Below, piece after piece: positions 2,951 to 56,519 of a stretch of 64,000 nt of DNA (its first letter is position 1; each line of letters opens with the position of its first letter). Location: contig NC_092633.1 in NCBI RefSeq assembly GCF_039555335.1, forward strand, positions 21,100,334 to 21,164,333, in the 5' to 3' direction. Both the position numbers and the translations under genes were made by a program. The DNA is from Amphiura filiformis. Its lineage: Eukaryota. The notes below the pieces were generated by a model. The model ran no database searches and was not told the DNA's origin. It saw only the letters and a list, made by a program, of their open reading frames with translations.

Positions 2951-4190
2951 TTACACAAATTGATACCACAAGTCATCATGAGCTGACAGGTGTTAATGAA
3001 ATAGTAAGCTCGCAACCTCATACAAAGATCAAAAGGCAATAATACATGTATGATTGAATATTTTAGTGCAGGCAACCGTTCAAATTTCCTTGTCGTGTCT
3101 CGCCGAATATTGCCATTAGACTCAATATAAGGCGATATTCTTACAGGAGTTCGCATTTTTTTCTGACAATTCACCGTTTATTTTCCTAAATGTCTGTAAA
3201 AACACTTGACCATTTTGTGTGATTAATCACAAGCAGGACAAATACTACTTCATTTGGAAGTACTGTCTGCAATGATAAGGACTTTGGACGTCAATTTAAC
3301 GTTACGTTGCTATATTGATTTCTTATATATGGATGTGGTCAGTAGCCCGATATAATTTTTTTCTCTTTTATATTGAAAAACGGCTCAAGCTACATGCGTT
3401 ATATAAAAACCCTTTTAAATAATCGTGATGGTGTTAATATGATTTTAAGCAACATGTTTAGTGAAATGTAAGGAGACATTAATGTAAGGCATGTTAGGGT
3501 TACGATTGTTTCCCTAAATAACACTCTTCTTTATAGATAGGTTTATCTGTACTGTATACTTGACGATATTTTTCATCATATTATATTTCACCGCTTCTTT
3601 TCCACGTGTGTGGATTCATTACTCACGGGTTTGATTTTTAGCCAACACAAAAAAATAGCCATTGCGTTAGTTTAAAACCGGAGGGACTCAAAGTCGACCA
3701 AATTGTGCTTAACGAATGTTCCAAGCTATTTCAATATTTTGAATCATCACATAACTTTGTGTATACATCATGCTTTCAGGTTCCTACTGCTCCGACGTAC
3801 GTTTGTATTTTTACAGCAAAATCTCGGATTAAATTCGGTTAAAAATAACATATCTAAAATATGCACTACTTGTGTGCTTTGTTTCGTTATGTTATTTCTT
3901 ATATTCCTCCATACTCTTGGAGCTACTCAGCCCCAGGAATGCATCTGATCAATATTCTAAGCCTCATTGAGTGCCTTGGTAACCACTGAGAAGGCCTCCG
4001 GACATGCCTTAAGCATGCAAGCAAACTTACAAGTGGTCTTCAAAGTAGCCAATATACTCTGCATATTTTCACGTGTTTATTCAAGCAATTCAAACTTTCA
4101 AGCTCTTTCATGACGAACGTAAAGCATGATAAGGTTTCGTCATGGTATCTAGGCCTATAACGTCTGTATAAAATAAATTATATCAACATA

Positions 4191-6001
4191 CAGACTTGAC
4201 ATAAGTATGGGATAATTCTTCACGAAGTGCAAGGACTAATCTGAAAGGGGTCTGCATAAACCGCACGGGTTAAATATTTCATATTGGGGTGTGTCGGGAG
4301 ATGGTGGTGTCAAATAATTTTTTTATAGAAAATGTGCTTTCCATGACTACATTATGGTGCTCATAATGTAGTGAATTAGCCTAAAACGGCGGATTTAAGG
4401 AGACTGAATTTGAGTGGGAGAATTTTTAAATTTAACAAAATGGCTCTTAAAAGTAGTACGTACTCAGAAAGTTCAATCATAGAAGAAATTGGAACCCCTA
4501 AGGGTTCTTGGCCTTGTCTCGTATATGGAACCTCAAGGTTTCTTCCAAGGAACAGCGCCATCTACGTCTGCTACCAATAGGAGGCAACAGACGAGAAAGG
4601 TCAAAGCTGTTAGTAACTGGTCATATATGTGCGGAAGGAAGTACTTGTCACAATCCCTGTTGAGTGTTTCAAGCTACCCCTCTTTCTTATCCAAATTGAT
4701 TCCTTTATGTGTATTCTTTTCCTGCTGATTTTAATGTCTTATTTTGCTTCATCTCATTCAATTTGAGAAAGTGCTGTGTTACAGCACGGAACGTCATTGA
4801 GGTATGTCAATATCACCTATTTTTTATTATTTGTAAATAATTTCTCCAAAGAACCTTTGTTGAAGAACCCTATCACAAAGGTTCTTTAACATGTTTATTG
4901 AAGTCTAAAGGTTCTCCAATTTTGTCCAGTATATGGAACCCTACGGTTCATCAAAGAACCTTCATGATATCATGATATGGGTTCTTTGAATAACCCTATC
5001 AAAAAGGTTCTTTGTTGAACCTTTAAAGGTTCTTCTAGTTTGTCCCCATATATTGCACCCTATGATTCTTCAAAAAACCTTTGCAATAAGGTTCTTTGAA
5101 GTATGGTGACACGTACTCTAGAAATTGTCCTTAAAAGTACGGTCTTAAAGGTGAACGGCCAGAAAATTTTATATATTTGCTTGAAAATATAAAATCCGTG
5201 AAAATTTTATATATTTGCTTGAAAATATAGAATCCGTGGCTATTTAAAAATAGCGTTTTCCCTGCGTTTCAGTCGTATATGTAATACACTAGGAACCCTT
5301 TTCAAGTAAATTAGGGGTTCCTTGTGGAACTCAAAAGCCATAAAGAATCGTATTTTCACTGCGAGAACCCCATTGAGACTTCTAGCCTAGAGGTTCTTCA
5401 AGCGCACATGGTTCTTAAACGAATCCTATATCATTTTGAAGAACCCTTGAAGAACCCTTTTTCTAAGAGTGTTTGAATGGCCCCTAGGGGCAAATGTTAT
5501 AAACTTACTGTGCACAAAGAAACACGTGAGTTCATTGGACAACCAGAAATCCGCGCAGTTGTTTTTGTACCGTAAGTTTATAACATTTGACTTTTGACGC
5601 CGAGTACGTACCACGTTTAGGAAAAATATTTTAAGCTCCTCCCATTTAAAAGAAAATTGCGCATTGCAAGTACATTTCAGCTCTGATGAAAGCCAAAAAG
5701 GAAATATCACCTTAAACTCCAATGAATTTGATAATAACAATAACAATGTTGGATTAAGTCCGAAATTGTATCCCCCACAAAGATCAAATTCATTCCTTTA
5801 AATCCGCCATTTTAGGCAAATGCACTACATTTTGAGCACCATAATGTAATCTCATGGGGAAACACAATTTCTATAAAACAATTATTTTATACCATCTCCC
5901 GACACACCCCAATTAATATTAAGTCCGTGCGGTTTATGCTGACCCCTTCCAGATTAGTCTTGGCACTTCGTGAAGAAATAGTCCATACAATGTCAAGTCT
6001 G
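4191..6001. mobile_element. Foldback-type non-autonomous DNA transposon with ~245-bp terminal inverted repeats. Termini begin CAGACTTGAC (hAT-like CAG start, unproven).
   Basis: Left arm 4191-4435 is the reverse complement of right arm 5757-6001. The interior carries reiterated ggttct/agaacc sub-repeats and a 2x40-bp tandem repeat at 5161-5240. It is absent from the paralogous site in macro-repeat copy 2 (~17300, aataaattatgtagtttctgttcaag). Confidence 0.7.
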
Positions 6002-6394
6002 TAATGTACTTTCCGTTCAGTTCAAAACGAAACATTCGAGACATAATATTCCCCACACATGTCGCATTAAAAAAAAAATAAACACGTACTAATGAACTAG
6101 CCCCTACCAGCTAAACACTAAACTGTGTTTCATGTCAAGAGAAACAAATCATATTTCAAGAGTTGAATTGCTAAGGAGAAAAACGTGTTTTTGTGATTTT
6201 GCAATTCCCTTCGATTTGATTAATTTTGACTTGGGTTAAAGTTTCCATGGATAGAAACTAAAATAATAAGTTTGATGCAAATTTTCAGTCTTCAGTTTTA
6301 TTTTATTATTTCTTTTATTTCTTGGATTTTATGGATGTAAGCAGTTTTGCAATTCAACAAAATAACCACTTCTCTAGAAACCACCTTTGCAGTA

Positions 6395-7055
6395 CAATTT
6401 GATTCCAGCTTTGACGTCTACTTTATGCTTCTTGATCAATGCCTTTAAAATCAAAAGGGAAAATTGAAACTTGAAAATTGAAAAATTGAAAATTGAAAAC
6501 TTTAATTGACAAATTCCCGAAATTTCCCGAAAGGAAAAATAGCGATATCTCAGTAAGGGAAGGTGAAATGATAGTCAAACAAGCACCACAATGTGTATTG
6601 TGACCGACGTAATAACTCAATTTGATTCCAGCTTTGACGTCTACTTTATGCATCTTGATCAATGCCTTTAAAATCAAAAGAAAAAATTGAAAAATCTCAT
6701 TTTCTTTTTTAATTACGATTTTTTAATTAAATTCGTGAAAATGCCATTTTCCGTCATTTCAATAATCCAACTTTTGTTCATTAATTAATTAGTAATTCTT
6801 ACAATTATAATGGCCAAAAAAGTTCATTTTGATTTTAAACGTTAATGAACATTAAATGCTATCATAAAACTTCAAAACATTATAAGAAAAAATATTTTCT
6901 CTAGATTTTAGACAACTTTAATTGACATTTTCCAGAAATTCCCGAAATTTCCCGAAAGGGAAATAGCGATATCTCAGTAAAGGAAGGTGGTATAAAAGTC
7001 AAATAAGTACCAAAATATGTATTTTGACCGCCGTAATAACTCATTTTGACCAAAA
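6395..7055 (+). repeat. Local duplication of a ~223-bp unit with (GAAAATT)n and a tttcccgaaatttcccgaaagg motif; private to macro-repeat copy 1
   Basis: 6395-6462 repeats at 6618-6685 (caatttgattccagctttgacgtctactttatgc). 6502-6630 matches 6917-7050. The block 6130-7095 is missing from copy 2, where 17450 directly abuts the homolog of 7100. Confidence 0.6.
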
Positions 7056-8589
7056 GTGGACGTAAGCTGTTTTGCAAGTCAACTCTTCATGTATCCTATC
7101 TATGGCGGGCCATGGCGGTCATAAAAAAATTAGGTGCAAAAGGAGACGCGATCTCAAAGACGAGCATAACTTTTTCAGTCTTCTTCATATTTTGTCGACA
7201 TTTCTGAAACATAAATGGTTTAAGGGAATTCCTCCAATTTATCAATCATTTTAAGCAATTTATCAACCATTTTGGCCCTTGCCGAATATCTGAAATTGAT
7301 GTGACCCATCCTACAACCATGTCAAATTCTGACTTTTTGTATATTTAAACATAACTGTGAATTATATACAAGCAGTAAATAAGCTTTAAATGGCACCAAA
7401 TTTGCAGTTCTGTACCATAAAACCTATTTAATATTTATGAAGATGTGCTACAATTTGCTAAGAGTTATTTAAGTGTTAGTGTGATTTAAATTCTTAGATA
7501 TAAATAACTACATTTATTCTATTACGACCATGAAGAGGGATTAACAAAAGTCAAGATTCAATTGTTTGCTTTGTTCCATTAACTCTATATTATATTTTCT
7601 TTTATCTTAAATTGGATTTCATTACAAAACTACTAGGTCTACCAACATCACACTTGAATACTCGGATTAAACGATAAGTGAATTAATTAATAGTCCTTAA
7701 TTATTATTGGTTTAAGAAAAACAGAACAAACACATATACATCTTATAAGAAGACGCTGAGAAACATAAGAAATACATGATTCAATTAACTGATTTGAATA
7801 GCAAATATGACGAAAAATGTACATTTCAGATGTCATTCTGTTTTGACGCTCATTCATAATATAGTCATAGTAGATAACCCGGAAGTTGCACCTGTTACTT
7901 ATAAATTCGCGTAAAGTTTTGTACAATAAAGCCTTTGCCATATTGTGCACACATCAAAGAAGAGAATTCTCTGCCACCTGGCCATTGTTTTGACGTGGAC
8001 TTCATTCCAATGTTCAACGCTGGAGAAAAATAATATATCGCTGTAGGACTAAAGTAAACATGTTGTAGAATAAGGATTATTGTAAAACCTCTAGTAGGGT
8101 AAATATTCCGCAAAGGTAAAAGAAAAGGAAAAAGGGACAAGAAATGTTATAAATGGACACGTAGACGAGACATGCAAAATACATAAGGAAACAAACAGGA
8201 AGGAATTTCAGACGCGGATTAAGAAGTAAACTTTAGGAGACACACGGATATACTAGGCTTGGTTTATTGTGTAATGGTAAATGAATGGATAGTGACAATG
8301 CAGATAGGCAGGTGTTATAATACAGTTCCCTGTTGATGTGTACATGTATTACAGAGGTTCATCCCATTATTTCAAATGGGGTTATTCCAGATCTTTGAGA
8401 TCCTGAAACTGGATATTTATATTTATGACCAAAAAACGTAGTGGAATTAATATCATAATATGTCATGGTTTGATATTTTGACACTAGAAAGTCATACAAT
8501 GTTAAGATTTATGTCATCTTTCTAAAGCTTCACTAAAGAATGTTGTTGATTTGCGTTCACTGGAAATAACCTCAATGTAGTTCCATTTT

Positions 8590-12962: not shown

Positions 12963-13419
12963 CTACCACTCTTCTTTACCACGACTTTAAGTAACAACTT
13001 TAGTACTAGCATAGGCATTCCGTTCCCTGAACAACCGTGCGAAATGTCAACCTTCTCCCCCAAACACAAAATGCAAAGCTGAGACATTGCAGAGAACAAT
13101 GACATTGCTAAGAATTGTGTCCAGCTCTGATTGAAACACAATATCTAGCGTGTGAAGACACGATAAGAAGAAGAAAGTCAACAAACACAAAAACACAAGA
13201 CATTTTCTTATTCTTTGGTTTACACGAAAAGCAATAAGGAATCTTGTGTTGTAATGTTCACAAGGAATGTGGTCTAATAACAGGGATGAATAAGTTGACT
13301 AAGTTGAGGAAAAGAACACAAACTTGCTCATAAACAAGCAAAAAAACACCCAATGATCTTATCATCAGGCCATAAAATGGATTGATAGAGTAAATTAAGG
13401 TCAAGTTTCTTTCTATTTC

Positions 13420-14655
13420 AGTGTCATTATGCAAAAGCTTGTAAAATGATGATAAAAGTGACGCTTTCAGCGTTATTATGCAAAAGCTTACAAAGGTTAC
13501 AAAGTGATTCTAAAAGTAATGCTTTCAGGGTCATTATATAAAAGTTTACAAAGCGATGTTAAAAGTTATGCTTTCAGTGTAATTATGCAAATGGCTCCAA
13601 AGTGATGCTAAAATTATGCATTCAGTGTTATTATGCAAATGGTTACAACGAGATGCTAAAAGTGATGCTTTCAGTGTAATTATACAAACAAAGTGATGCT
13701 AAAGCTGATGCATTCAGTGTAAGGCTTACAACGTGATGCTAACAATGATGTTTCAGTGTCATTATTTAAACTTTGACAAAGTTATGCTGATGCTAAAAGT
13801 GATGCTTCCAGTGTCATTATGCAAATAGTTACAATGAGATGATACATTCGGTGTAATTATGCAATGGTTTACAACGTGATGCTTTCAGGGTCACTATATA
13901 AAAGGTTACAAAGTGATGCTAAAAGTGATGCTTTCACTGTAATTAGGCAAATAGTTACAAAGTGATACTAAAATGATGCTTTCAGTGTAACTATGCAAAG
14001 GTTTACAACGTGGTGTTAAAAATGATGTTTTCAGTGTCAATATTTGAAAGCTAAAAGTGATGCTTTCAGTGTCATTATGCAAAGGCTTACAACGTGATGC
14101 TAAGAATGATGTTATCAGTTTCATTATTTAAAAGCTTACAAAGTAATGCTGATGCTAAACCTAATGCTTCCAATGTCATTATGCAAATTGTTACAACTAG
14201 ATGCTAAAAATGATACATTCAACGTAATTATGCAAAGGCTTACAACGTGATGCCAAAAATTATGTTTCCAGTGTCATTATTTTAAAGCTTACAAAGTGAT
14301 GCTGATGCTAAAGGTGATGCTTCCAGTGTCACTATGCAAATGGTTACAAGCAGATGCTAAAGATGATACATTCAGTGTAATTATGCAAAGGTTTACAACG
14401 TGATGCTAAAAATGATGTTATCAGTTAACAGTTTCATTATTTAAAAGCTTTCAAAGTAATGATGATGCTAAACGTAATGCTTCCAATGTCATTATGCAAA
14501 TTGTTACAACTAGATGCTAAAAATGATACATTCAGTGTAATTATGCAAAGGTTTACAACGTGATGCTAAAATAATGTTTTCAGTTTCATTATTTAAAAGT
14601 TTACAAAGTAATGCTGATGCTAAACGTAATGCTTCCAATGTCATTATGCAAATTG
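13420..14655 (+). repeat. 49-bp satellite array (copy 2, part a), interrupted at its 3' end by a MITE
   Basis: Same unit as 2310-2950. The MITE 14659-15237 sits inside a repeat unit. Confidence 0.9.
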
Positions 14656-14658
14656 TTA

Positions 14659-15237
14659 GGGAGGACAGTTTTTATGGTCTACTTAGCTCAGCAATTCTTT
14701 GCGTCTTCGATAGCGCATTGTATCGGAGAGGTACCTGGCTTTTATCAAAGCCCAAAACCATAAAAGCATGTAGCCAACTCTGTCAGGCTCCGCTCAATTG
14801 TCCACCCCGCTCCGATACGACACGTTGACCAAATATCAATCGAATCTATTTTACGACCCTGCTTGAATTAACCCCTTGAAACCTAATTGCACCACTTTTA
14901 ATTTTTATGTATTGGTCAGGCACAAACAAAATTAAACTTACACACATTATTGACTTTCTATTGACCACAAAACACGACCCCAGACATGCTTATTTAATGA
15001 CCACTTGAGTAGTTGATTTAAGTGGGTCGTTATGTACTTACTGAACACAAAGGAAATTGATTATGGTTTTACCATCGACCGTGTTTATAATCCTGCTGCT
15101 CTGCTGAACGCTCCGATAGATATCAGCAAACCCGTATACTATTCGCTTGTTCCTATCGAACGCTCTAGCGTACATGAACCATTATTGAAGACAGCAAAGC
15201 ATTGCTGAGCTAAGTAGACCATAAAAACTGTCCTCCC
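14659..15237. mobile_element. PIF/Harbinger-like MITE (579 bp) inserted into the 49-bp satellite
   Basis: Perfect 37-bp TIR gggaggacagtttttatggtctacttagctcagcaat. It is flanked by TTA at 14656-58 and 15238-40. The satellite unit reads through uninterrupted if the element plus one TTA is removed (tgcaaattgTTAcaactagatg). Confidence 0.7.
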
Positions 15238-15240
15238 TTA

Positions 15241-15790
15241 CAACTAGATGATAAAAATGATACAGTCAGTGTAATTATGCAAAGGTTTACAAGTGATGCT
15301 AAAATAATGTTTTCAGTGTCATTGTTTGAAAGCTTACAAAGTGCGGCTAAAGGGATGCTTTCAGCATTGTTATGCAAAAGCTTACAAATGGGTTAAGTGG
15401 TGCTAAAAGTGATGCTTTCAGTGTCACAGTGCAAAGGCTTACAACGTGGTGCTAAAAATGAAGTTTCAGTGTCATTATTTAAAAGCTTACAAAGTAATGC
15501 TGATGCTAAACGTAATGCTTCCAATGTCATTATGCACATTGTTACAACTAGATGCTAAAAATGATACATTCAGTGTAATTATGCAAAGGTTTACAAAGTG
15601 ATGCTAAAAATGATGTTTTCAGTGGCATTGTTTTAAAGCTAAAAGTAATGCTTCCCGTGTCACTATGCAAACGGTTACAAAGTGATGCTGATCAAATTGA
15701 TGCTGAAAGTGCTACTTTCAGTGCAAAGTGATGCTTAAAGTGATGCTTTTAGTGTCATTGTGTAAAGGCTTACAAAAATTGACACCAAAA
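15241..15790 (+). repeat. 49-bp satellite array (copy 2, part b)
   Basis: The array continues after the MITE. It ends in a truncated copy of the array 3' flank (15790-15895, cttacaaaaattgacaccaaaaatagtcatgtgctgacaggtgccaatg). Confidence 0.85.
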
Positions 15791-15895
15791 ATAGTCATGT
15801 GCTGACAGGTGCCAATGAAACTGTAAGTCCGCTTTTTCACGCCTCGCCGAATATTGCCAAGTTAGACTACTAAGGCGGTATTCTTCCATTTTCAA

Positions 15896-16240
15896 GAACA
15901 AAGGTTACAAAATGATGCTAAAAGTGATGCTTTCAGCGTCATTATGCACAAGATTAAAAATTGATGTTAAAAATGGTGTTTTCTTTGTAATTGTGCAAAG
16001 GCTTATATACTAATTTTCAGTGTCATTATGCAAAAGCATACATATTGATGATAAAAGTGCAACTTTCAGTGTAATTATGCAAAAAGCTGGCAAAGTATTG
16101 CTAAAACTGATGCTTTCAGTGTCATTATGCAAAAGCTTACAAAGTGATGCTAAAAGTGATGCTTTCAGTGTCATTATGCAAAAGCTTACAAAGTGATGTT
16201 AAAAGTGATGTTTTCAGTGTCAATATATAAAGGCTTACAC
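15896..16240 (+). repeat. 49-bp satellite array (copy 2, part c), followed by the complete 3' flank
   Basis: A second array block follows the internal flank copy. This implies an internal array-plus-flank duplication in copy 2. Confidence 0.85.
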
Positions 16241-17726
16241 AAATTGATACCACAAGTCATCATGAGCTGACAGGTGTTAATGAAATAGTAAGCTCGCAAC
16301 CTCATACAAAGATCAAAAGGCAATAATACATGTATGATTGAATATTTTAGTGCAAGCAACCGTTCAAATTTCCTTGTCGTGTCTCGCCGAATATTGCCAT
16401 TAGACTCATATAAGGCGATATTCTTACAGGAGTTCAATTCAACGTTTATTTTCCTTAATGTCTGTAAAATACTTCACCATTTTTTGTGATTAATAACAAG
16501 CAGTACAAATAATACTTCATTTGGAAGCACTGTCTGAATTGACAAGGACAAGGACGAAAATTTAACGTTACGCTGCCTTAATGATTCCCCATACAAGGAT
16601 GCGGTCAGTAGCCCGATATAGTTTTCTTTCTCTTTGACCTTGGAAAACGGCTCAAGCTACATGCGTTATATAAAAAACGATATTAAATAACCGTGATAAT
16701 GTTAATTATAATTTTAAGTATAAACATGTTTAGTGAAAGGGTTACGATTTTACCTTAACGACTCTTTTTAGATTTTTTTTATTTTTATTTTTTATTTGAA
16801 CTGTATACTTCTTGAAGATGTTTTATTTATTTTATATTTTACCGCCTCTTTTCCACGTGTGTGGATTTATTATTTAAGGTTTTTTTAAAAGGGTTTCATT
16901 TTTGCCCAACACAAAATAGCCATTGCGTTATTTTAAATCCACCGGGGCCAATAGTCCATGGTGCTTAACCAATATTTTGAATGGATCAACATCATATAAC
17001 GTTGTGTATACATCATGCTTTCAGCTTCCTACTGCTCCGACGTATGTCTGTATTTTTACAGCAAAGTCTCGGATTAAATTCAGTTAAAAATAACATACCT
17101 ACAATATGCACTTCTCGTGTGTTTTGTTTCGTTATGTTATTTTGTATATTCCTCCATACTCTTGGAGCTACTCAGCCCCAGGAATGCATCTGATCAATAT
17201 TTTAAACCTCATTTGTTAGTATCCACTGAGAAGGCCTCCGGACATGCCTTAAGCATGCAAGCAAACTTACAAGTGGTTTTCAAAGTAACTAATAATACTC
17301 TGTATACAATAAATTATGTAGTTTCTGTTCAAGTTAAAACAAAGTCGACACTCAGACATTCCCCACACATGTCGCTTTTTTAATACGTGCTAACGAAGTA
17401 ATCCCTACAATGAATCAGCTAAGCACTGTATTTTCAAAATCCTAAGTTCTCTAAGGCGGTCATAAGAAAAAATACGTACAAAGGGAGACGCGATCCCAAC
17501 GACGGACGGAGCCTGTCAGTTTTCTTCATATTTTGTCGACATTACTGAAATGAAAATGGTTTAAGAGCATTCCCCTAATTTATCAACCATTTTTAAGCAA
17601 TCGCAATGCAATGATCCGTGCCGGATCTCAGACATTAATATGACCATCCTACTACAACCCTGGACATGTCAACATTTTTGTATAATTTAAACATAACTGT
17701 GAATTACCAACAATAAATAACCTTAA

Positions 17727-18270
17727 GGGATCTGGAATGAGCGTTTTGAGCGTTTCGACAATATTTTTGTGGGACATGAGAGCACATCAGACATATCGAA
17801 TTGCATTCTGAATACGAAGAATGTCTTTCTGATATCAATTTTTTTTTTTTGAAATTCACGATATAAAACAAATTTTATGACAAATTATTAAATTTGATAT
17901 TTTTCACATTTTTGATATACATGTATAACAGTCCTCGAAGTAAATTTTATAAATCTAATGATATATTCTTAAAGTGTATGTAGCTAGGAGGTAAAGCCGA
18001 CGATCAATTGAAAATTTTGACCTTTCATCCCACCTACATACACTTTAAGTATAAATCATCAGATTTATAAAGTTTACTTCGAGTGCTGTTTCAACAAAAA
18101 TATCAATTTTCAATCATTTGCCATAAAATGTGTATTACATTGCGAATTTCAAAAAATCAAAATTATTTGATATCAGAAGGACATTCTTCGTATTCAGAAT
18201 GCAATTCGATATGTCTGATGTGCTCTAATGTCCCACAATAAATACTGTCTAAACGTTCATACCCCACCCC
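17727..18270. mobile_element. TTAA-flanked palindromic MITE (544 bp) with ~70-bp perfect subterminal inverted repeats and GGG...CCC termini
   Basis: TTAA at 17723-26 and 18271-74. 17762-17830 is the reverse complement of 18170-18237. The empty paralogous site at ~7388 (gcttTAAAtggcaccaaat) has a single TTAA. Confidence 0.7.
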
Positions 18271-19023
18271 TTAAGAATGGCACCAAATTTGCAGTTTTGT
18301 ACCATAAAACCTATAGTATATTTATGAGGATATGCTACAATTTGCTAAGGGTTTTTTAAGTGGTAATGTAATTTCAATTCTGAGGAATAAAGCAATACAT
18401 TTCTCCAATTACGCAGTCCTGAATAGGGATTAACAAAAGTCAAGATTCAATTGTGTGCTTTGTATTCACATGAGTATGACAAACCATTAACTCTAGATAT
18501 TCAATTACAAATATTTTACCTTATGATATGGTCGGTTCTTTTATCTTAAATTGTCTTCATCACAAAATTAGGCCTGCCTGCATCGCAATAAGTGAATTAT
18601 TTACTAATCCTTAATCATTATTGGTTTAAGAAACACAGACCAAACACATATAAATCTTATAAGAAAACCCTGAGAAATACAAGAAATATATACTAACTGT
18701 TTTGAATAGTAGATAAGACGAAAATAAACCAAGATTTGAGTTGTCATTGTGTTTCAATGCTCATTTATAAAGTCATAGTTGATAAGTCTGAAGTTGCACC
18801 TGTTCGTTACAAATTCGCGTAGAATTGTGTACAATAAACCCTTTGCTATTGTGCACACATCAAAGAAAAAGGTTCTGTGCAACTTTTTTTTTATCTTTCC
18901 ACAGAGCACACAAGGTGCCCTGTGTATTTATTTATCAAACATGATCTCAGTTATACATAGTTATAAAAGCCACAATTATACAGAATAATAACAATAATAT
19001 TACATTGATGAAAGTAACTGTTA

Positions 19024-19713
19024 TTACATATTTATAGAGTTCCATCTTTTATTCCATTCATACATTTTACCTTTATTGTTTGCAATGTGTTTTTCAGTCT
19101 CGGCGACAGTATTAAGCATACCTTTAAAACCTTGTATGTCCAGCTTATTTTTATTACATCTTGCATTATAAATAAACTTTTTCCCCTGAAGAACAACAAA
19201 ATTATAATGACAATAATCAACATCTAATATGCCCAACAGAACATCCTTCATGGTAAGAGTAACTCTTTTTTTAAAGATATTATCTTGAACCTTCTTCCAA
19301 AATTGAGCAGAAGTACCACATTGCCAAAATAAATGTGGGATATTTTCTAACTCCTGATTACAAAAAGTACAAAGATTTGAATCAACATAACCATATTTAA
19401 ATAGATTTTCATTTATACCTATAATTCTATGCAGAATTTTGAATTGAAAATACCTAAGTTTGGTTGATAGGGAGGAAGACAAGGAAATCCTGTAAATATC
19501 GTTCCAATTTAAATTCATATCATCAAAAAAGACAGCCCATTTGGCCTCGGCTTTGGGCGCAGTTAAACAACTTGTCAACGCAAATTTTGTGAACCAATTT
19601 GCAGACCTTCTTAGAGGAACAGATAAGAGCAAGCATATCATCATGATCATTCTGAACAGTTCCCAAGTCTTCCCCCCTCTCGACACTTCTGATCCATACA
19701 TTTGGAATGGCAT
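19024..19713 (-). pseudogene. L1-like ORF2 C-terminal region with Cys-rich motif and stop codon (copy B)
   Basis: ORF ends 19024. The ~130-bp 3'UTR then runs to the poly(A) at 18892. Confidence 0.7.
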
Positions 19714-21009
19714 AGATTAGAGCAAAATATTCCAGAAAGTTACATTGTAAATTATACTTGGTCTTCAAGATATCAAGGGGAAGAAAACTATCATCTTCAT
19801 TTAAAATATCAGAAATAAATTTAATACCTTTCTCATGCCAGACTTTTTTGTAAACAGTGTTTTGGGCGATAACAATAGATGAATTATTCCATAATATTTG
19901 ATGTCTAAAATGACTTGAAGGAGAATCATAAGTAATTGTACACCAAGCGTTGAGAATTTCACCAATAAACACATTCTTAATAAGCTTAATACATTTCTCC
20001 TCTGGTTTAGTGTTAAAAAAACAAAAAAGATTACCACCAATCTGTTTCATATAAAACATATAAAAACATTTCCATTTACCATTGTTGTTCACATCCAAGA
20101 GACGTTTAACCCAAGCCACTTTAAGCCCATTAATAACTGAGGGAATGTGAACCATCTTGAGGCCCCCTTTCTCATAGTCACCAATGATGGACTTTCTGCT
20201 GAGCTTATCTGGTTTTCCTGACCAAATAAATTTAAATATTATCGAGTCAACCTCCTTCAAAAAATTATCAGGTGGTTTAGGTAAAACAGAAAACAGAAAA
20301 ATTAATTGAGAAAGACCCAAGGATTTAACAATTGTAATTTTACCAATTGGACTTAAATCTCTCATCGACCAAATTCGCAAGATTTCCTTGAGTTTTTTGG
20401 AACGAAATTTAATTCAAAAATATTGCTCAGATCAGAACTAAAAACTACACCCAAAAGACGAACAGGATTGGCAGTAAAATGTAAATCATCATTGTTTAAA
20501 TCAGGAGGATTATCCTTAAACAAACCTAAAGGGAGTAACTCAGATTTATCCAAGTTAATTTTCAAGCCAGAATAAATTTGGAAAGTCTCAAGAATGTGAA
20601 CAACTCTGTGAAGGAGCCAACATCCTTTAAGTAAATAGTGGTATCATCCGCATAAGCACTAATAATAATTTCAGTATTCTCAACCATGATACCTTTAACA
20701 CTATTATCATTTCTGATGGCCAAATTCAAAATCTCACTACTAATTATATAAAGCAGCGGACTAAGTGGACAACCTTGACGAAGTCCACAAAACAATTAAA
20801 AAAATCAGAAGCATGTCCATTGTTCATAACACACGAGGTAATATCTGTATAGAAAACTTTCACCCAATTAATCAAATCATCACCAAAATTAAACAATTTT
20901 AATGCCCTAAACACAAAGGACCATTCAAGTTTGTCGAATGCCTTTTCAAAATCAATTAAAAACATAATACCAACAAAATTATTTTCTGTGCAACCTGATC
21001 ATTGGGTTT

Positions 21010-22714
21010 GAAGTACCACATTGCCAAAATAAATGTGGGATATTTTCTAACTCCTGATTACAAAAAGTACAAAGATTTGAATCAACATAACCATATTTAA
21101 ATAGATTTTCATTTATACCTATAATTCTATGCAGAATTTTGAATTGAAAATACCTAAGTTTGGTTGATAGGGAGGAAGACAAGGGAATCCTGTAAATATC
21201 GTTCCAATTTAAATTCATATCATCAAAAAAGACAGCCCATTTGGCCTCGGCTTTGGGCGTCTTAAACAACTTGTCAACGCAAATTTTGTGAACCAATTTG
21301 CAGACCTTCTTAGAGGAACAGATAAGAGCAAGCATATCATCATGATCATTCTGAACAGTTCCCAAGTCTTCCCCCCTCTCGACACTTCTGATCCATACAT
21401 TTGGAATGGCATAGATTAGAGCAAAATATTCCAGAAAGTTACATTGTAAATTATACTTGGTCTTCAAGATATCAAGGGGAAGAAAACTATCATCTTCATT
21501 TAAAATATCAGAAATAAATTTAATACCTTTCTCATGCCAGACTTTTTTGTAAACAGTGTTTTGGGCGATAACAATAGATGAATTATTCCATAATATTTGA
21601 TGTCTAAAATGACTTGAAGGAGAATCATAAGTAATTGTACACCAAGCGTTGAGAATTTCACCAATAAACACATTCTTAATATTAAAGCTTAATACATTTC
21701 TCCTCTGGTTTAGGGTTACATTCCCAAAAAAGATTACCACCAATCTGTTTCATATAAAACATATAAAAACATTTCCATTTACCATTGTTGTTCACATCCA
21801 AGAGACGTTTAACCCAAGCCACTTTAAGCCCATTAATAACTGAGGGAATGTGAACCATCTTGAGGCCCCCTTTCTCATAGTCACCAATGATGGACTTTCT
21901 GCTGAGCTTATCTGGTTTTCCTGACCAAATAAATTTAAATATTATCGAGTCAACCTCCTTCAAAAAATTATCAGGTGGTTTAGGTAAAACAGAAAACAGA
22001 AAAATTAATTGAGAAAGACCCAAGGATTTAACAATTGTAATTTTACCAATTGGACTTAAATCTCTCATCGACCAAATTCGCAAGATTTCCTTGAGTTTTT
22101 TGGAACGAAATTTAATTCAAAAATATTGCTCAGATCAGAACTAAAAACTACACCCAAAAGACGAACAGGATTGGCAGTAAAATGTAAATCATCATTGTTT
22201 AAATCAGGAGGATTATCCTTAAACAAACCTAAAGGGAGTAACTCAGATTTATCCAAGTTAATTTTCAAGCCAGAATAAATTTGGAAAGTCTCAAGAATGT
22301 GAACAACTCTGTGAAGGGAGCCAACATCCTTTAAGTAAATAGTGGTATCATCCGCATAAGCACTAATAATAATTTCAGTATTCTCAACCATGATACCTTT
22401 AACACTATTATCATTTCTGATGGCCAAATTCAAAATCTCACTACTAATTATATAAAGCAGCGGACTAAGTGGACAACCTTGACGAAGTCCACAAAACAAT
22501 TTTAAAAAATCAGAAGCATGTCCATTGTTCATAACACACGAGGTAATATCTGTATAGAAAACTTTCACCCAATTAATCAAATCATCACCAAAATTAAACA
22601 ATTTTAATGCCCTAAACACAAAGGACCATTCAAGTTTGTCGAATGCCTTTTCAAAATCAATTAAAAACATAATACCAACAAAATTATTTTCTGTGCAACC
22701 TGACCATTGGGTTT
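21010..22714 (-). repeat. Tandem duplicate of 19309-21009 (LINE 5' part plus TSD plus 15 bp of upstream flank)
   Basis: The junction at 20983-21011 reads ttctgtgcaacctgatcattgggttt|gaagtaccac. That is the TSD plus flank joined to internal LINE sequence (= 19309), with a 2-bp 'ga' microhomology. The two units are near-identical. Confidence 0.7.
22065..22670 (-). pseudogene. L1-like ORF2 reverse-transcriptase fragment (copy A)
   Basis: 201-aa ORF with FIDFEKAFD, RQGCPLSPLLY and YADDTTIY. The equivalent region in copy B (20362-20965) is broken into three frames by homopolymer indels. Confidence 0.8.
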
Positions 22715-22759
22715 GACGTGGACTTCATTCCAAATGCTCCAAGCTGGAGTAAAATAATA

Positions 22760-26310: not shown

Positions 26311-28055
26311 TGCTGACAGGTGTTAGTAAAAATCACAACCCTTTCACCAAAAGCTGACAGTAACGTATCTAAAAAAACATAAACATTACAAACAATGCTT
26401 CATTTGGTAGCACTGTCTGCAATGACAAGGACTTTTGACATCAATTTAACGTTACGTTGCCTTAATGATTTCTCATCCGCGTATTATGGTTCTCTTTCAC
26501 TTTGACCTTGGGGAAAAAAGCTTAAACTACATGCGCTATATGAAAACCCTTTAATAATCATGATAGTGGTAATATGATTTTAAATAGCATCTTTAGTGAA
26601 ATTAAGGTGAGATGGAGTTGGTTGCCCAGCACTTGCATGTGGCGCCCAGCACTTGCCTGTTACAGTACAATGCAGTTAAGGTAGTGCCCCGTCAGGCAAC
26701 AGTCAACCACACGGTCAGAAAAAAGACGGGAACCGCCACAAACCAGATCACAGCTGTTTGCAAGAAATTTTGCACCGCGTATGTGGAAGTTCACTTTTCA
26801 AACGGCTACTTTACTTAAACAAAATTGCGACAAGAACTGTCACCCTTGCGAGGGAAAATACAGCTTCGTTAGCCATGTCACTGGGTCGTCAAGAAACAAA
26901 AATATTGAACTAACACCACAGCTGTGGTACATCACAATATAAAAGCAATGGAAAGAAAAATGCAAATGTTCGTCATTTTTCAGCACATATAATATTGGCA
27001 AAATTTTGCATATAGCCACCATTTCTTCAGCTAACTCGTCTATATCCAAGGGGTGCCCGTCATCTAGTTATTATCTATATCTATGTTATAGTACGGAACT
27101 GAAGATTGTGAAAGTGCCAGGTTTTGGCTATAAATTTACATTCCGAATCAAATTGATTATATATTTGTAATGTTTTTATTTAAAATGACTCTTGTGCCGA
27201 GAATAATCATTTTGATACGCAACGTCAGGCTTTTTGAATCTCAATCTCGCTTTAAAGGAAGTTATGTAAGGCTATCAGTTTCTGTTCACTTCAAAACTTA
27301 TTCGCTGTTTAAAGGGGACATTCAGACATTCCACAGATTACGTTTTTATTCCACTTTTAATACGCACTTATGTAAACCTAATATGAATTACTAACCCCTA
27401 TAATGAATAAGCTAGACACTGCGCTTTCATGTCAAGAAAGGCAATCTAAAATTGTATTGGCAGTCATAAGAAATTACGTGTAAATCAATTGGAATGCGAC
27501 GTGATCTTTCAGTTTTATTCATATTTTGTCGACAACTTCAGAACATTTTACAAATATATCTTTTTATATTTTGGGTCCTAGCTGGATCATGTGACCCATC
27601 CTACAACCCGTAACATGTAACGATTGGACTTTTTGTTTGATATTCAAACATAACTGCAAATCACAAATATTATATATATAAGCTTTAAAATATCACCAAA
27701 TATATGTAATTTTTTGCAGATATGCTACCGTGACAATTTGCCAAAAGTTCTTTATGTGTTCTAATGTAAGAGCAATTTGAGGAATAAACCAATATTTTTC
27801 TACAGTTACTCATTCCTGAACAGGGATTAACAAAAGTCAAGATTTAATTGTGCGCTTAGTATTACACAAGTATGACTCTAGAAATTGAAATGAAACTATT
27901 TGATCTTTTCAATGTATCATCTTTATATTATATTGGCCTTCATCACACTTTAAAGTGGGAACTCGGAGTTCTAGGTAAGAAATAAGTGAGTTATAACCGA
28001 ATCCTTAATTTGGAAATATAGAATGCAAGTAACTATCTCAAATAGTACAAATATG

Positions 28056-30640: not shown

Positions 30641-30873
30641 TGTCTGAGGTATCTCAATACAAATACTACCGAATCATTTTCTGAACACGAGTTACAAAAT
30701 ATGATACGCCTATATATGCGTTACTTATTCAGTTGTTCATTGGACTGTCGTTCTTCAATGGAATCTGTCTAGCAAGTTTGGAACGGGTGTTACTAAAACG
30801 AAGACAGGAGACCGAAGACGTTTAGCGAAGGTCTGCAATTCTCTATTTTAAGCCCACGGTTGAATAAAACATA

Positions 30874-31466
30874 CGAGGGGTATCAAAAAGTTTTAGAAAT
30901 CGCACAGAAGTGAAAGAGCTATATCAATGAAATTTTGTCAGTGCAATCACTGGTCCTTATGTACACTATGGTGCAAAAATGGTCTCATAAGTATGTTTAC
31001 TTTTTTTACAGGAGCTAGATGTCACTACCTGCCTATGTAACCGCATAACCAGCAAAATGGAGAAAATTGAGCCATGCAGCATGATTAAGTTCCATTTTAA
31101 GGGTTACAGTGCCCAGAAAATCTGTGATGAAATAAAAATTCCTTTTCCAAAAAGTGACAGTGACATATCACAATCACCACCGAAGATAACTTTCATTTCA
31201 TCATCAATTTTCTAGGCACAGCAACCCTTCAAAAGCTGGATCTTAATAATGCTGCTTGCCTCAATTTTCTCAATCTTGCAGTTTATGCGCAGTAATTGGG
31301 GCAGCGGGTTATTGGCATCTAGTGCCACCTGTAAAAAAAGCAAACATACCTATGAGACCATTTTTGGACCATAATGTACATAAGAACCAGTGATTGCACT
31401 GACAAAATTTCATTAATATAGCTCTTTCACTTCTGTGCGATTTCTAAAACTTTTGATACCCCCTCG
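30874..31466. mobile_element. TA-flanked MITE (593 bp) with ~125-bp TIRs, likely Tc1/mariner-mobilised
   Basis: 30874-30990 is the reverse complement of 31340-31466 (cgaggggtatcaaaaagttttagaaatcgcacagaagtgaaagagctatat...). TA dinucleotides at 30872-73 and 31467-68. Confidence 0.7.
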
Positions 31467-33272
31467 TACGCACCCTATGTTGTTTTAAAAATAATAGTAT
31501 CCAAATTTATTTGGTATCTTTTACTTCATGAATATATAGACTTCTGAATTCTTATGATTAGAGAAGTAGACTAAGTTTGGTGTGATTTCAACATTTTTGA
31601 ATATTATTTGACCCCTGTATACACTTCGATGACCTACTCCCGTCATCATGCAAAGAAATTTTCGCTCTTAAACCAAATTTGTTAGCCATGTCAAATGCTT
31701 CATCTGTCAATTTCTGTGTTTTTCCGGTAAAATGAACACTGCTTTCAACATTCTGCAGGTATAAAAATGGTAATATTGGCTAAAGGTTTCAAGTAAACTA
31801 CACTAAGTTCAATTTGCTAAACAAGTTGGTTGACACATTAATGGTTGGATATGGATCTCTTACACAAAATTAACCAAGTAGAGACAAACCTCTTCAGAAG
31901 CAACGGGCCTACCAGAAAAGACGTGATGTTCTCAATTACTTCGCTATATGAAGAGCTTTGTTTTAAAAACCCTTGCATCCACTTTTGGCTGAAATTGAGT
32001 TATTGACATGACATATAGTGTGGGTAAAAATACACATTTTGTGTCATACCACTTTCCCTTCCGGAGATATGGTATATTTCCCGTTTGGGAAATCTTAGGG
32101 AATTTCCGGAAATCTGAACATAAAATGAATATAAAATTGTTTTGTTTTAATTTTTTGATGTATACTAGTAGCATGGAATGTTCTTTACCTATTAAAACCA
32201 AAGGGAATTGTTTTTGGGTCACTATTTTTGAAAAAATCATTTTAATCAACAAAAGGTGTAGCTTCGGAAATACTCAAAAAAGTAAATAAAAAAGTAAATG
32301 AGATATTTCAATTTTTCTTTTTGATTTTGAAAGCATTAGTCAAGTTACATAAAGTAGTGCAAACAAATGGGCTCAAATATGATTGCAAAGGTGGTTTCTA
32401 GAAAAGGGGTAAATTTGTTTTGTTGCAAAAGCCCTTACATCCACAAAAGGCGCGATATAAAAGATATAATAAAATAAATAGGAAGGCTTCAAAATTGTAC
32501 CAAACCTATTCTTTTAGTTTCTATTCATCAACACTTTATCCAAACCCAAATTGAATCAAATCGAACCAGTAATATTTGCACAATTTAAAAAAGCTGTTTT
32601 TCTCAAAAAGTCAAAAGTGGATGTAAGGGGTTTTGCAACAAAGCTCTTCATATATCGGTTTAATGCAGCAATGACGCCCAGATCATCTAGTTTGTTAACT
32701 TCAAAAACGTTAACTTCAAATTTTCTAGACATATCAAGCGCTTCATCTGAGCCCATTTCTATGCTTTTTCGGCAACAGAACACTGCTTTCACCATTCTGC
32801 AGCACCAATCGTGCAAGCTAAAATAAGGAAACTAATGTTATAGATTATGTAATTTGCAGTATCAAACTTCATCCAGTTTATCAACAATATTTTCTTTGGA
32901 TAATTTCATTCAAACATTTATTCGATATAAATTTTATAGATTTTGAGCAGTTACAATTTTGGTTAACCAAATTGATAAGCTAATATACTCGTATGAGATG
33001 AAATATTATTGTAAATATTTCAAGAAAACATAAACAATAAACTATTCATTAAATTGTAAACGTCATTCAGAGCAGGATATGGTAATCTATCGGAGATAAC
33101 GAGTTTTATATCATAATACTAAAAAGTAAGACTTTTCGTGTATAAAGCACCAACATCGTCTGCCACTCGAGGAAAATAGCAAGTTCTTGAATATTTAGAA
33201 TGTTATATTTAAATAAGCAATTCAATTTAATGATATAAATCAATTACTGGCGATGCATGCATGTGACTTTTT

Positions 33273-33470: not shown

Positions 33471-34824
33471 AATTTAAGTAGTTCAACATAATTTTTCACT
33501 TGAATTGTTCAAAACGAACCATATTTACAGATGTGGCTGACATTTTTGTACAAAATTACAGCTAATTTCAATCGTTGTTCACAAACTACTTTATGATTCC
33601 ATTGATCATCTGCTGGCCAATCAAATACGCTGAAACTATTACATCAGGTCACGTTTTTATTTTCTCTGAACTCAATAAACTCAATACCTAAAGCACTTGC
33701 ATAAACGGCTATTAATCTGTCATTTACGCCACTCAAACTCTTTTAGATTGGGAACCAATTTAGGTCATTGGCTAATTTCAAGTAAACTACATTAAGATCA
33801 ATTTTCTAAACAAGTTAGTTGACACACTAATCTATAGTTGACACTCAGAATAATTGGATATGGATCTCTTACACCGAATTATTAGTCAAATTCTGTGTCA
33901 CAGTGTACTGAGTAAAGACAAGCCTCTTCAGAAGCGTCGGACCTACCAGAAACAACATGGTGTTCTCAATAACACTTGTTTAGACTGGTTTATATTGTTA
34001 AGTCATAGATTTATTAATTCGCCATATCTCGGTCACTAGTCGTGCAAGCTAAAATAAGGTAACTAATGTTAGAGATTGTGGAATTATATTTGCATTATTA
34101 AATTTCATCCATTTTATCAACAATATTTTCTTTGGATAATTTCATTCAAACATTTATTCGATATAATTTTTACAGATTTTGAGCAGTTTCAATTTTGGTT
34201 AACCAAACACATATTGATAAGCTTTTATATGAGATGAAATATTTACCGTAAATATTATCAGGAAAACAAAAGCAATAAACTATTCATTAAATTCGTAAAC
34301 GTCGTTAAGAGCAGGATGCGGTAAACTATCGGATATAACGACTTTTAGATTATAATACTCAAACGTAAGTCTTCTCATGTTTAAAGCACCAATATCGTCT
34401 GCCATTTGAGAAAAAAATCAAATTCTTGAATATTTAGAATGTTATATTTAAATAAGCAGGTCAATAATATAACTCAATTACTTTTTGTACAAGATTACAG
34501 CTTCGTCTATTGCTTGGTAAAAATGACAATTTTTATTTTATCCAAGAGATATAGATTTCTTCAATCGACGTTCGCCAGCTACTTTATGTTTCCATTAACC
34601 ATCTGCTAGCCAATAAAATACGATTAAACCATTGTAAACTATTACATCAGGTCAAACACTTGCGTAAACGCCTAATAATCTGTCATTTGCGCCACTGAGA
34701 CTCTATTAAATGGGGAACAAATTCAGGTCATCAATATTGGCTTAAAGTTTCAAGTAAACTACACTAAGATCAATTTTGTAAACAAGTTAGTTCACACATT
34801 AATATATGGTTGACACTCAACACT

Positions 34825-35074
34825 CTAAGAAATAAAGGTTCTTAAAAGGTTCTAAAGTTGTCCTCTAAGGCGAACCCGTAGCGGTTCTCTAAAGAACCAA
34901 AAATGGTTCTAAAAACCATAGAAAATGGTCCCAAAAAGTAATACAGGGCCGTTTTCGGTTCTTTTAAGAACCTTCAAGGGTTTTCCATAATTAAAGAACT
35001 TTTTTAGAGGTTCCAGATGGAGGATTCTCGTGAGAGGACAAAAAAAGGTTCTATTTGGAACTTTTATTTCTTAG
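34825..35074. mobile_element. MITE (~250 bp) built from ggttct/agaacc sub-repeats with a 17-bp imperfect TIR
   Basis: ctaagaaataaaggttc at 34825-41 against ggaacttttatttcttag at 35057-74. The empty paralogous site is at ~33845 (gttgacactcagaataattgg). The same sub-repeats fill the foldback element 4191-6001, and a partial copy lies at 59020-59110. Confidence 0.5.
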
Positions 35075-35119
35075 AATGAAGATAATTGCATCTTTTGCAC
35101 CGAATTAACCGAATTCTAT

Positions 35120-36995: not shown

Positions 36996-37301
36996 CTAAC
37001 AAGATACATTGAAAAGATGAGTTTTGAGTCCTTTTTTGAAAGAGTTTATGTTTGATACTGAACGAAGCTTGAAAGGCAACTTGTTCCATACCTTTGGTGC
37101 AGCTGCGGCAAATGATCTTTCGCCGTAGAACTTGGTTTTACACTTCTTTGGAGCGCGTGTACAAAGGAGAGCTTGTGAAGCCGATCGTAGAGTCCGCTGT
37201 GGCTTATACTCCTCAATAAGATCGCTAATATATCTAGGAGCCAACCCGTGCAATGCCTTATAGGTAAGCAATGCAATCTTGTATACAATCCGCTGTTGCA
37301 C
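36996..37301 (-). CDS. L2 ORF2 extreme C-terminus, displaced into another frame by a frameshift
   Basis: ALLTYKALHGLAPRYISDLIEEYKPQRTLRSAS...APKVWNKLPFKLR...FKKGLKTHLF is the canonical L2 tail. Confidence 0.8.
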   Translation of the reverse strand: MQQRIVYKIALLTYKALHGLAPRYISDLIEEYKPQRTLRSASQALLCTRAPKKCKTKFYGERSFAAAAPKVWNKLPFKLRSVSNINSFKKGLKTHLFNVSC

Positions 37302-48900: not shown

Positions 48901-49553
48901 TGTCATTCAAGGTCATTATACTCTCGATTCCCTGTTCCATAAATCGAAGGCAATGCTCTAAAAAAGCCCCCGTAAAATGAAAGAAATGCCAGTTTCGGGA
49001 AAACCGTGTCCTCAAAGACCTCGAATGGTATGTCAGAATATGTCACGATATTATTCGAGTGGAAACGAGCGAATAACAAAGAAAGCCTTTTAAAATATTG
49101 AAACCTAGCTTTAATGGCGTCAATCACATAATAACTACTCTGACAACTTCATTGAAAGAGTTGGCCTTGAGCACTAACTGGGTAATCCATCGGTGTATTC
49201 TATCGCATTTCATTCAGTAAAAGTGAAATCATGTCCGTAAATGGTGATTATCACTAATGTATGTGTCTTCAATAATATTTCTAATGCCACTCATGTTTGT
49301 ATAACTTCTCATCTTGAATAGAATGTGTTATGTGTAGCGGTGATCTAAAAGTATGTCAATGTCATTATTTATATGTTCATTGTGTACAATTTGAATCGTA
49401 ACACTTGTTTTTATTCTTTAATTTTACCTTGCTTTTCAAACTAGATGTGCGATGTAAGTATACCAGCTCTAATACATTGAAAATACTGCGCAAAAATCTA
49501 TATCGACAAACATAACAAAAATAGAACGATTCGAACCAGGTATACCAACTTAA

Positions 49554-49904
49554 GGGGGTACTACACCTCTGGCCAATTTTTTGCCTATTTGTGCAAAAAA
49601 AAAAAAATTATAGCACATTGGTGACAAGTAAGATATGTATATTATAGGGGCAAGGACTACAACTACTGCACTGAAAATTCAGCAACTCGAGGCAAGTAGT
49701 TATTGATTTATTGATCAAATATTGGTTTTCCCTCATTTTTGACTGTAACCCCACAACTGTTGTCTGTGCTGAAATAAAATTTCCAGTGCAGTAGTTGTAG
49801 TCATTGCCCCTATAATATATATATCTTACTTGTCCCCAATGCACTATAATTTTTGAGAAAAATGCAAAAATAGGCACAAAATTGGGCAGGGGTGTAGTAC
49901 CCCC
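49554..49904. mobile_element. TTAA-flanked MITE (351 bp) with ~125-bp near-perfect TIRs and GGGGG...CCCCC termini
   Basis: TTAA at 49550-53 and 49905-08. gggggtactacacctctggccaattttttgcctatttgtgc... is the reverse complement of the right arm. A paralogous near-empty site on the opposite strand at 50875-50915 reads gattcaaaccaggtataccaacTTGAtgtggggaacaagaca. Confidence 0.75.
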
Positions 49905-53560: not shown

Positions 53561-53576
53561 TGAGGACTGAAAAATG

Positions 53577-56480: not shown

Positions 56481-56519
56481 TTAATGTATGTATGTATATT
56501 ATTATTGTTTTTTGCGGCT

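Follow-up and report, generated by a model that had tools for sequence, protein, structure and literature searches.

A 1.8-kb segment with long inverted ends, very probably a non-autonomous DNA transposon gained by one copy of a tandem macro-repeat in the brittle star Amphiura filiformis

The 1811-bp segment at positions 4191-6001 of the 64-kb window (the whole stretch of Amphiura filiformis DNA analysed here, in whose coordinates all positions are given) is very probably the fossil of a transposon that copy 1 of a tandem macro-repeat acquired. The segment has inverted repeats at both ends, and two paralogs have empty sites with homology breaks near the tips of these terminal inverted repeats (TIRs), the attributes of a class II TIR element. 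The reading that best accounts for the locus as a whole is that of a dead, non-autonomous TIR transposon inserted in copy 1, with a Tc1/mariner transposase as its most likely mobiliser; we regard it as likely, with the gain itself on firmer ground. At the TIRs, of about 223 bp each, a transposase encoded by an autonomous relative elsewhere in the genome and acting in trans would have bound and cut the DNA. The element would have entered copy 1 of a tandem duplication of ~11-13 kb as a single unit, after the separation of copies 1 and 2, and would have decayed afterwards, with at least one fragment of a miniature element (MITE) inserted or recombined into its interior. We infer from the pattern described below that the insertion was transposase-mediated, to which superfamily it belongs and in which order the interior events took place.

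The element is bounded by the inverted ends CAGACTTGAC...GTCAAGTCTG and is organised as follows.

4189-4190: TA, candidate left copy of the target-site duplication (TSD), adjoining the TIR tip
4191-4413, plus strand: left TIR, starting CAGACTTGACAT, matching 5784-6001 in reverse complement at 84-87% identity
4346-4372: small conserved hairpin within the left TIR, ACTACATTATG-n5-CATAATGTAGT
4414-4839: left interior, unique and non-coding, with short ORFs only, matching nothing in Pfam or the databases
4840-5104: ggttct/agaacc palindromic units in a block that includes local palindromes at 4848-4887, 4942-5021 and 5065-5104
5104-5146, minus strand: stretch resembling the 5' domain of U3 snoRNA (GAC/A'/A boxes), borderline
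5162-5237: tandem duplication, 2 x 38 bp, 97% identity
5290-5474, minus strand: second ggttct/agaacc block, ending in a MITE-family terminus, probably a nested, partial MITE
5491-5589: internal hairpin with 31-nt arms (87% complementary) and a 37-nt loop
5590-5783: right interior, unique and non-coding
5784-6001, minus strand: right TIR, ending ATGTCAAGTCTG
6002-6003: TA, candidate right copy of the TSD, adjoining the TIR tip

When the element is compared with the window by BLAST, 4191-4413 and 5784-6001 align in inverted orientation at 84.1% identity over 226 columns (E = 1.9e-61); a Smith-Waterman alignment of the arm pair gives 197 identities in 233 columns (84.5%), 14 of them gapped, and the Kimura two-parameter (K2P) distance between the arms is 0.144 over 215 ungapped sites. 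The inverted ends announced in the preliminary description of this DNA are thus real, but they measure about 223 bp and not 245 bp, the alignment stopping at 4413 and 5784. Outside these limits inverted symmetry is confined to scattered patches, for example a 21-nt match between 4445-4465 and 5602-5622, and the element as a full palindrome is rejected, a single symmetric patch of 21 nt being found past the 223 bp. The suspected hairpin potential was amply confirmed: with a short loop between them, the arms have a folding energy of -174.3 kcal/mol, compared with -44.3 +/- 4.2 kcal/mol in shuffled sequences (z = -30.9). An assembly foldback artefact is ruled out because the arms are only 84% identical. 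Neither tandem sub-repeats nor direct repeats of at least 10 nt (seed 6) were found inside either arm, so that the arms hold no pair of the IR/DR type. BLAST and nhmmer detect no second copy of the TIR in the 64-kb window, where the element matches only itself and its own inverted ends.

The interior is a patchwork that contains ggttct/agaacc palindromic units, as had been noticed from the outset: 15 of the window's 40 GGTTCT/AGAACC hexamers lie within 4480-5480, and the 16-mer GGTTCTTYRAAGAACC, allowing up to two mismatches, occurs six times where 0.04 occurrences are expected, with four of them in 4945-5079 and two in 34883-34972. The latter interval belongs to a standalone MITE at 34821-35078, said earlier to be built of the same sub-repeats. 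This claim holds for the shared motif and for one 22-nt terminus at 5452-5474, but it does not extend to any alignable homology overall, the comparison of the MITE with the interior being non-significant (nhmmer E = 0.15-0.33). Read in reverse complement, 5452-5474 is ACACTCTTAGAAAAAGGGTTCT, which aligns with the MITE termini at 34820, at 35078 (reverse complement) and at 59026; the interior therefore holds a genuine end of that MITE family. Taken together, the family (34821-35078; 59026 onwards) has palindromic GGTTCT..AGAACC units and the terminus ACACTCTNAGAAA.A..GGTTCT in common with the element at 5452-5474, but it is a separate family, with other tips and a length of 258 bp, nested in or recombined into the 1.8-kb element without defining it. 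To present the ggttct sub-repeats as the element's own building blocks was thus an overstatement; they seem to stem from a partial MITE, or more than one, nested in the element, and the blocks are probably best read as nested or recombined MITE material.

The element is non-autonomous, since no coding match was found in its ORFs or in its six frames. Its longest ORF spans 106 aa, and neither the ORFs nor all six frames with stops masked give a Pfam match at E <= 1, leaving no transposase remnant. To detect other copies of the element through spurious ORFs predicted on them, the six-frame translations of the arms and the unique interior were joined into 2311 aa; this query returns nothing at E <= 1e-3 from 5.8 billion proteins. 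The interior is hence non-coding, as initially described, with only short ORFs and no Pfam or database homolog. Searched as exact patterns, the conserved TIR blocks give one chance match in a metagenome scan, on a GC-rich contig of bacterial type, and none among genome contigs and viral contigs; a metagenome contig in ENA that comes from another species, with a LINE of ~70% nucleotide identity, bears no trace of the element.

Evidence for mobility comes from the macro-repeat in which the element lies. By self-BLAST, 2308-4065 matches 15569-17306, and 7114-7977 matches 17455-17724 and 18276-18883. Copy 1 and copy 2 were chained through short-word BLAST anchors, and a three-way alignment was made with the element taken out, the third sequence being a more diverged paralog at about 26375-27860. 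The anchors and the empty sites are the following.

17145-17287 in copy 2, matching 3900-4047 in copy 1: anchor, 93% identity
17299-17317 in copy 2, matching 4163-4181 in copy 1: anchor, 18 of 19 positions
17309-17334, plus strand: empty site in copy 2, AATAAATTATGTAGTTTCTGTTCAAG, bracketed by the anchors 17299-17317 and 17358-17375
17358-17375 in copy 2, matching 6048-6065 in copy 1: anchor, 18 of 18 positions
17455-17601 in copy 2, matching 7114-7259 in copy 1: anchor, 82-87% identity, two overlapping alignments
27258-27297, plus strand: empty site in copy 3 (more diverged), ..AGTTATGTAAGGCTATCAGTTTCTGTTCAC..

Copy 2 reads straight through the site at 17309-17334, in agreement with the preliminary description, and the third paralog reads through it as well. 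The element is indeed absent from copy 2, but its absence is not the sole difference between the two copies: the surplus of copy 1 over copy 2 is made of three separate indels, one of ~105 bp (4068-4172), one of 1824 bp (4182-6005) and one of ~940 bp (6150-7100), the last of which is missing from the third paralog too. The 1824-bp piece comprises the 1811-bp element and 13 further bases (ATCAACATA on the left and TAAT on the right), such that homology breaks 9 bp from the TIR tip on the left and 4 bp from it on the right. A ragged deletion in copy 2, the outcome that would have spoken against an insertion, is not what these near-terminal breaks look like. The remaining raggedness of ~10-11 bp at the junction is probably for the most part a small deletion specific to copy 2, because the spacing from TTAT to TTTC is 15 nt in copy 1 (minus the element and one TA), 13 nt in copy 3 and 4 nt in copy 2.

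Which transposase might have mobilised the element is a question addressed by its target site. Every boundary pair within a few bases of the tips was scanned for direct repeats of 2-11 bp, and TA is the only one found at TIR-symmetric boundaries; the paralogs carry a TA within TTATGTA at the insertion site. As TA is palindromic, these flanks could also be two extra bases of the TIRs, and an identical TA on both sides would arise by chance in about 1% of cases in DNA this rich in AT, so that the duplication is suggested but not proven. No duplication of 3, 4, 8 or 9 bp is present at any TIR-symmetric boundary. The TSD had been thought blurred by divergence; the junction is indeed ragged with respect to copy 2, but a candidate TA duplication is still in place, with no duplication longer than it. 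Flanking TA and CAG tips are a hallmark of elements of the Tc1/mariner/pogo type, several of which have inverted repeats of 200-460 bp. Because TA stands on both sides and the tips read CAG, a transposase of the Tc1/mariner superfamily, which targets TA and duplicates these 2 bp, is our best guess for the mobiliser, a guess to which we give an even chance and in which tips, TSD and family consensus all rest on a single old insertion.

Within the IS630-Tc1-mariner group, elements with long inverted repeats such as Minos, S, Tc3 and those of the Sleeping Beauty type have inverted repeats of a couple of hundred base pairs, move by cut-and-paste and give rise to internal deletion derivatives that use transposase in trans; the element resembles them and their derivatives in its TA flanks and CAG tips. 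In comparison with these elements, however, it has no transposase remnant and no IR/DR pair in either arm, and its interior is made of unrelated MITE-like material. Long-IR Tc1-like elements such as Sleeping Beauty carry two transposase-binding direct repeats per inverted repeat, and the arms described here, devoid of direct repeats of 10 nt or more, do not place the element in that IR/DR subgroup. Assignments to piggyBac/Kolobok (TTAA) and to PIF/Harbinger (TWA) fail in that the 3- and 4-bp flanks never repeat at symmetric boundaries.

The CAG start had first been taken as a hint of hAT-like ends. In that alternative, the element would be a non-autonomous hAT element with CAG tips whose 8-bp duplication was erased by mutation and indels. 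Its tip CAGAC fits four of the five positions of YARNG and resembles CAGAG, the tip of hobo, Hermes and Tol2; indels at the junction are evident, copy 2 being short by ~10 bp; and hAT MITEs and other non-autonomous hAT elements likewise combine CAG-type tips, a non-coding sequence and presence/absence between paralogs. However, the hint is not supported by the flanks: the 8-bp sequences TCAACATA and TAATGTAC match at two of eight positions and shifted boundaries do not rescue them, whereas at ~7% divergence per lineage roughly seven of the eight duplicated positions should survive, and TA is all that repeats. The TIRs are moreover far longer than is typical: hAT TIRs usually span 10-25 bp, and those of 223 bp are about ten times that length. 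TA-type, Tc1/mariner-like ends are thus more likely than hAT-like ones, and a hAT origin, although the best placed of the alternatives, seems unlikely.

Whether the element was gained by copy 1 or lost by the others depends on the relationship between the three copies. The K2P distances at two anchor regions are as follows.

copy 1 to copy 2: 0.156 at anchor 1, 0.261 at anchor 2
copy 1 to copy 3: 0.241 at anchor 1, 0.391 at anchor 2
copy 2 to copy 3: 0.212 at anchor 1, 0.341 at anchor 2

These distances yield the tree ((c1,c2),c3). As neither copy 2 nor copy 3 has the element, one gain explains the pattern, and a single gain by copy 1 is the most parsimonious history. The mobility that had been proposed from the presence of the element in copy 1 and its absence from copy 2 is thereby strengthened, the third, equally empty paralog polarising the difference as a gain. 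An insertion at or after the duplication also fits the divergence of the flanks between copies 1 and 2 (K2P 0.145 for the left flank, 0.26-0.27 for the right), which the arm-to-arm distance does not exceed; the arm divergence by itself would be compatible with an older element.

It is against this background that an ancestral presence has to be weighed, in which the element would predate the duplication and would have been lost later from copies 2 and 3, either by transposase-mediated excision, together with a little flanking sequence, or by hairpin-promoted deletion of the long inverted repeat. Long palindromes are prone to deletion, a small deletion in copy 2 lies exactly at the site, and the near-equality of the arm distance and the left-flank distance gives no clear sign that the element postdates the duplication. 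On the other hand, this history requires two independent, near-precise losses instead of one gain, the divergence of the right flank is well above that of the arms, and copy 3, whose empty site is in itself an argument against ancestral presence, shows no footprint of the TIR tips. We consider it improbable, slightly more so than a hAT origin. For the preferred history, a gain by copy 1, an age can be proposed: the neutral rate published for A. filiformis is 1.885e-9 per bp per year (PMC11310086), and at K = 0.144 the insertion would be at most ~38 Myr old if the arms were identical at the time of insertion; at the same rate, the divergence of the flanks of copies 1 and 2 corresponds to roughly 38-70 Myr.

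The preliminary label of foldback element deserves a comment of its own. Long TIRs and a hairpin are features of such elements, but the label is generous for an element whose arms, free of tandem sub-repeats, make up 25% of its length. Taken literally, it would place the element among transposons of the Foldback/Mutator type, such as Drosophila FB, Tetris and the sea-urchin TU elements, whose TIRs are long and whose target duplication is 8-10 bp. Sea urchin is known to have Foldback elements, a class of which the majority seems to fall within Mutator (PMC4079207); the echinoderm precedent, according to the passage that mentions it there, was found by comparing repeated units (Liebermann et al. 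1983, cited in PMC4079207). The element shares with the Foldback elements (Drosophila FB, Galileo and Tetris, and sea-urchin TU) the long TIRs, the non-coding middle domain and the strong hairpin potential, but differs from them by its lack of tandem-repeat domains in arms that are a minority of its length and by the absence of any 8-, 9- or 10-bp duplication, which makes this assignment very doubtful. Least plausible of all is that the segment is no transposon, being instead a local inverted duplication caused by a replication or repair error, or two opposite insertions of a 223-bp repeat: the arm pair is found in a single instance in the 64-kb window, as such an origin would have it, but both paralogs lack the 1.8 kb in full, arms and interior alike, with homology broken at the outer ends of the arms, no source copy of arm or interior lies nearby, and the CAG...CTG tips and TA flanks are transposon-like.

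The surroundings of the element are those of a repeat-rich locus. The A. filiformis genome spans 1.57 Gb, with 36.67% GC, 59.3% repeats and bursts of DNA transposons (PMC11310086). The window is AT-rich (GC 31-44%, mostly 33-37%) and contains LINE ORFs encoding endonuclease and reverse-transcriptase domains, among which the reverse-transcriptase ORF at 37046-38434 on the minus strand is 97-98% identical to A. filiformis proteins and 45-70% identical to LINEs of other echinoderms and of cnidarians; a search for SINE heads finds no tRNA in the window. It is also packed with other TIR elements, three of which are placed here, the first and the last having a clean empty site in a paralog.

17727-18270: foldback MITE in copy 2, 544 bp, flanked by TTAA at both ends, where the empty site of copy 1 has TTAA once (7386-7389)
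about 30870-31470: TA-flanked element with long TIRs
34821-35078: the ggttct MITE, which its own paralog at about 33847-33912 lacks

In this window, DNA transposons have thus routinely inserted after duplication, and with insertions of this kind commonplace the ordinary reading of the 1.8-kb element as one of them is a safe one.

One interior stretch resembles a known RNA. The Rfam model of U3 snoRNA (RF00012) matches 4980-5146 on the minus strand with 26 bits, below its gathering score of 34; the E-value of the match rises with the length searched, from 0.001 (0.8 kb) through 0.004 (3.5 kb) to 0.077 (whole window). The good match is confined to the first 40-45 nt, which are identical to the model consensus at 30 of 39 positions (Smith-Waterman score 21, compared with 15.5 +/- 1.0 and a maximum of 20 in 60 Markov shuffles), and ggttct repeats stand in for the 3' domain. 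A U3 gene at 4980-5146 is therefore rejected, given the score below gathering and the absence of the 3' domain and of boxes C and D; the stretch may be a chance resemblance or a degenerate fragment. On the same strand, TATATAAAA occupies positions -29 to -21 relative to the start of the U3-like stretch, inside the duplicated 38-mer. The standalone MITE at 34821-35078 has no U3 match in Rfam. The termini of the ggttct MITEs weakly resemble the same U3 stretch. It would be a long shot to see in 5104-5237 (minus strand) a snoRNA-derived, promoter-bearing cassette, its TATA box at -29 lying in the duplicated 38-mer, captured and spread by an ophiuroid DNA transposon or MITE family. If true, this would be a novel way for sequences complementary to pre-rRNA to be dispersed, or else an snRNA-headed mobile element; to our knowledge, the latter have so far been described only as U1- and U2-headed SINEs.

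On the ordinary reading, the element adds one to the decayed, non-autonomous DNA transposons of this genome and matters little beyond annotation. Its value is that of a dated marker in a locus where a macro-duplication of ~11-13 kb was followed by several independent transposable-element insertions in each copy, and that of a worked example in which a third paralog is used to polarise an insertion. A genome-wide consensus of its family could join the ophiuroid repeat library.

The 1811-bp TA-flanked element at 4191-6001, a non-coding long-TIR DNA transposon fossil, occupies copy 1 of a set of tandem paralogous macro-units and has the following features around and within it, in window coordinates:

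~1057-30600: three tandem paralogous macro-units of ~11-13 kb each
2307-2955 and 13416-16239: satellite-like arrays, repeat period ~100 bp
4068-4172: 105-bp segment confined to copy 1 and placed 18 bp upstream of the element
4980-5237, minus strand: look-alike of the U3 snoRNA 5' domain
6150-7100: second insertion specific to copy 1, ~940 bp
17727-18270: 544-bp foldback MITE in copy 2
19310-22719: 1.7-kb tandem duplication (units 19310-21014 and 21010-22719, 98.9% identity)
~30870-31470: 600-bp TA-flanked long-TIR element
34821-35078: 258-bp ggttct MITE, built of ggttct/agaacc palindromic units, with 57-nt arms at 72%
37046-40131, minus strand: nearly intact LINE (endonuclease ORF of 573 aa, RT ORF of 462 aa)
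49545-49913: MITE with tips GGGGGTACTACACC...GGTGTAGTACCCCC, TTAA at each flank

The copy-2 MITE at 17727-18270 has arms of at least 83 nt that match at 93%, with the tips GGGATC...CACCCC; it is flanked on each side by TTAA, and the homologous point of copy 1 holds a single TTAA (7386-7389). This MITE is a clean insertion of piggyBac/Kolobok type, with TTAA duplication, that post-dates the duplication of the macro-units. Relatives are present in the window at 53575-53965 and 56210-56484, and the MITE at 49545-49913 shares its TTAA/GGG style.

Two segments close to the element are likewise specific to copy 1. The ~940-bp segment is missing in copies 2 and 3. In reverse orientation it resembles a TIR element with 56-nt arms at 31935-32664, and parts of it are duplicated internally (6395-6469/6618-6692 and 6495-6625/6911-7049). 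A pair of near-identical 9-mers, CTCTGCATA and GTCTGTATA, flanks the 105-bp segment, which holds a hairpin with a 9-bp stem (CATGACGAA..TTCGTCATG); its presence in copy 1 alone may reflect either an insertion that left an 8-9-bp duplication or a slippage deletion in copy 2.

The element at ~30870-31470 has 141-nt arms that match at 92%, and its tips, CGAGGGGTATC...GATACCCCCTCG, are set between TA dinucleotides. It shares the TA flanks and long TIRs with the element at 4191-6001, but the two sequences are unrelated. The ggttct MITE lies in one unit only of a local tandem duplication (32803-34031/34034-35232), the site corresponding to it in the other unit being at ~33847-33912, and any TSD would span no more than 2-3 bp.

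Inside the element, the U3-like stretch scores 26 bits against an Rfam gathering score of 34, with a consensus identity of 30/39 and a window-wide E of 0.077, of borderline significance; TATATAAAA stands at -29 to -21, within a 2 x 38-bp tandem duplication, and the U3 3' domain is absent from the stretch.

The GC content of the window peaks (44%) at the LINE, whose RT ORF matches A. filiformis proteins at 97-98% identity over its C-terminal 38%, a match that marks this species as very likely the host. The 1.7-kb duplication falls within a LINE reverse-transcriptase region and is much younger than all its surroundings. Among the macro-units, copy 3 has diverged further than the others and is also shorter; the satellite-like arrays are common to copies 1 and 2 and greatly expanded in copy 2. 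Divergence between these two copies is uneven, with a K2P of 0.105-0.145 to the left of the element versus 0.26-0.27 to its right, which may stem from gene conversion or a mosaic origin.
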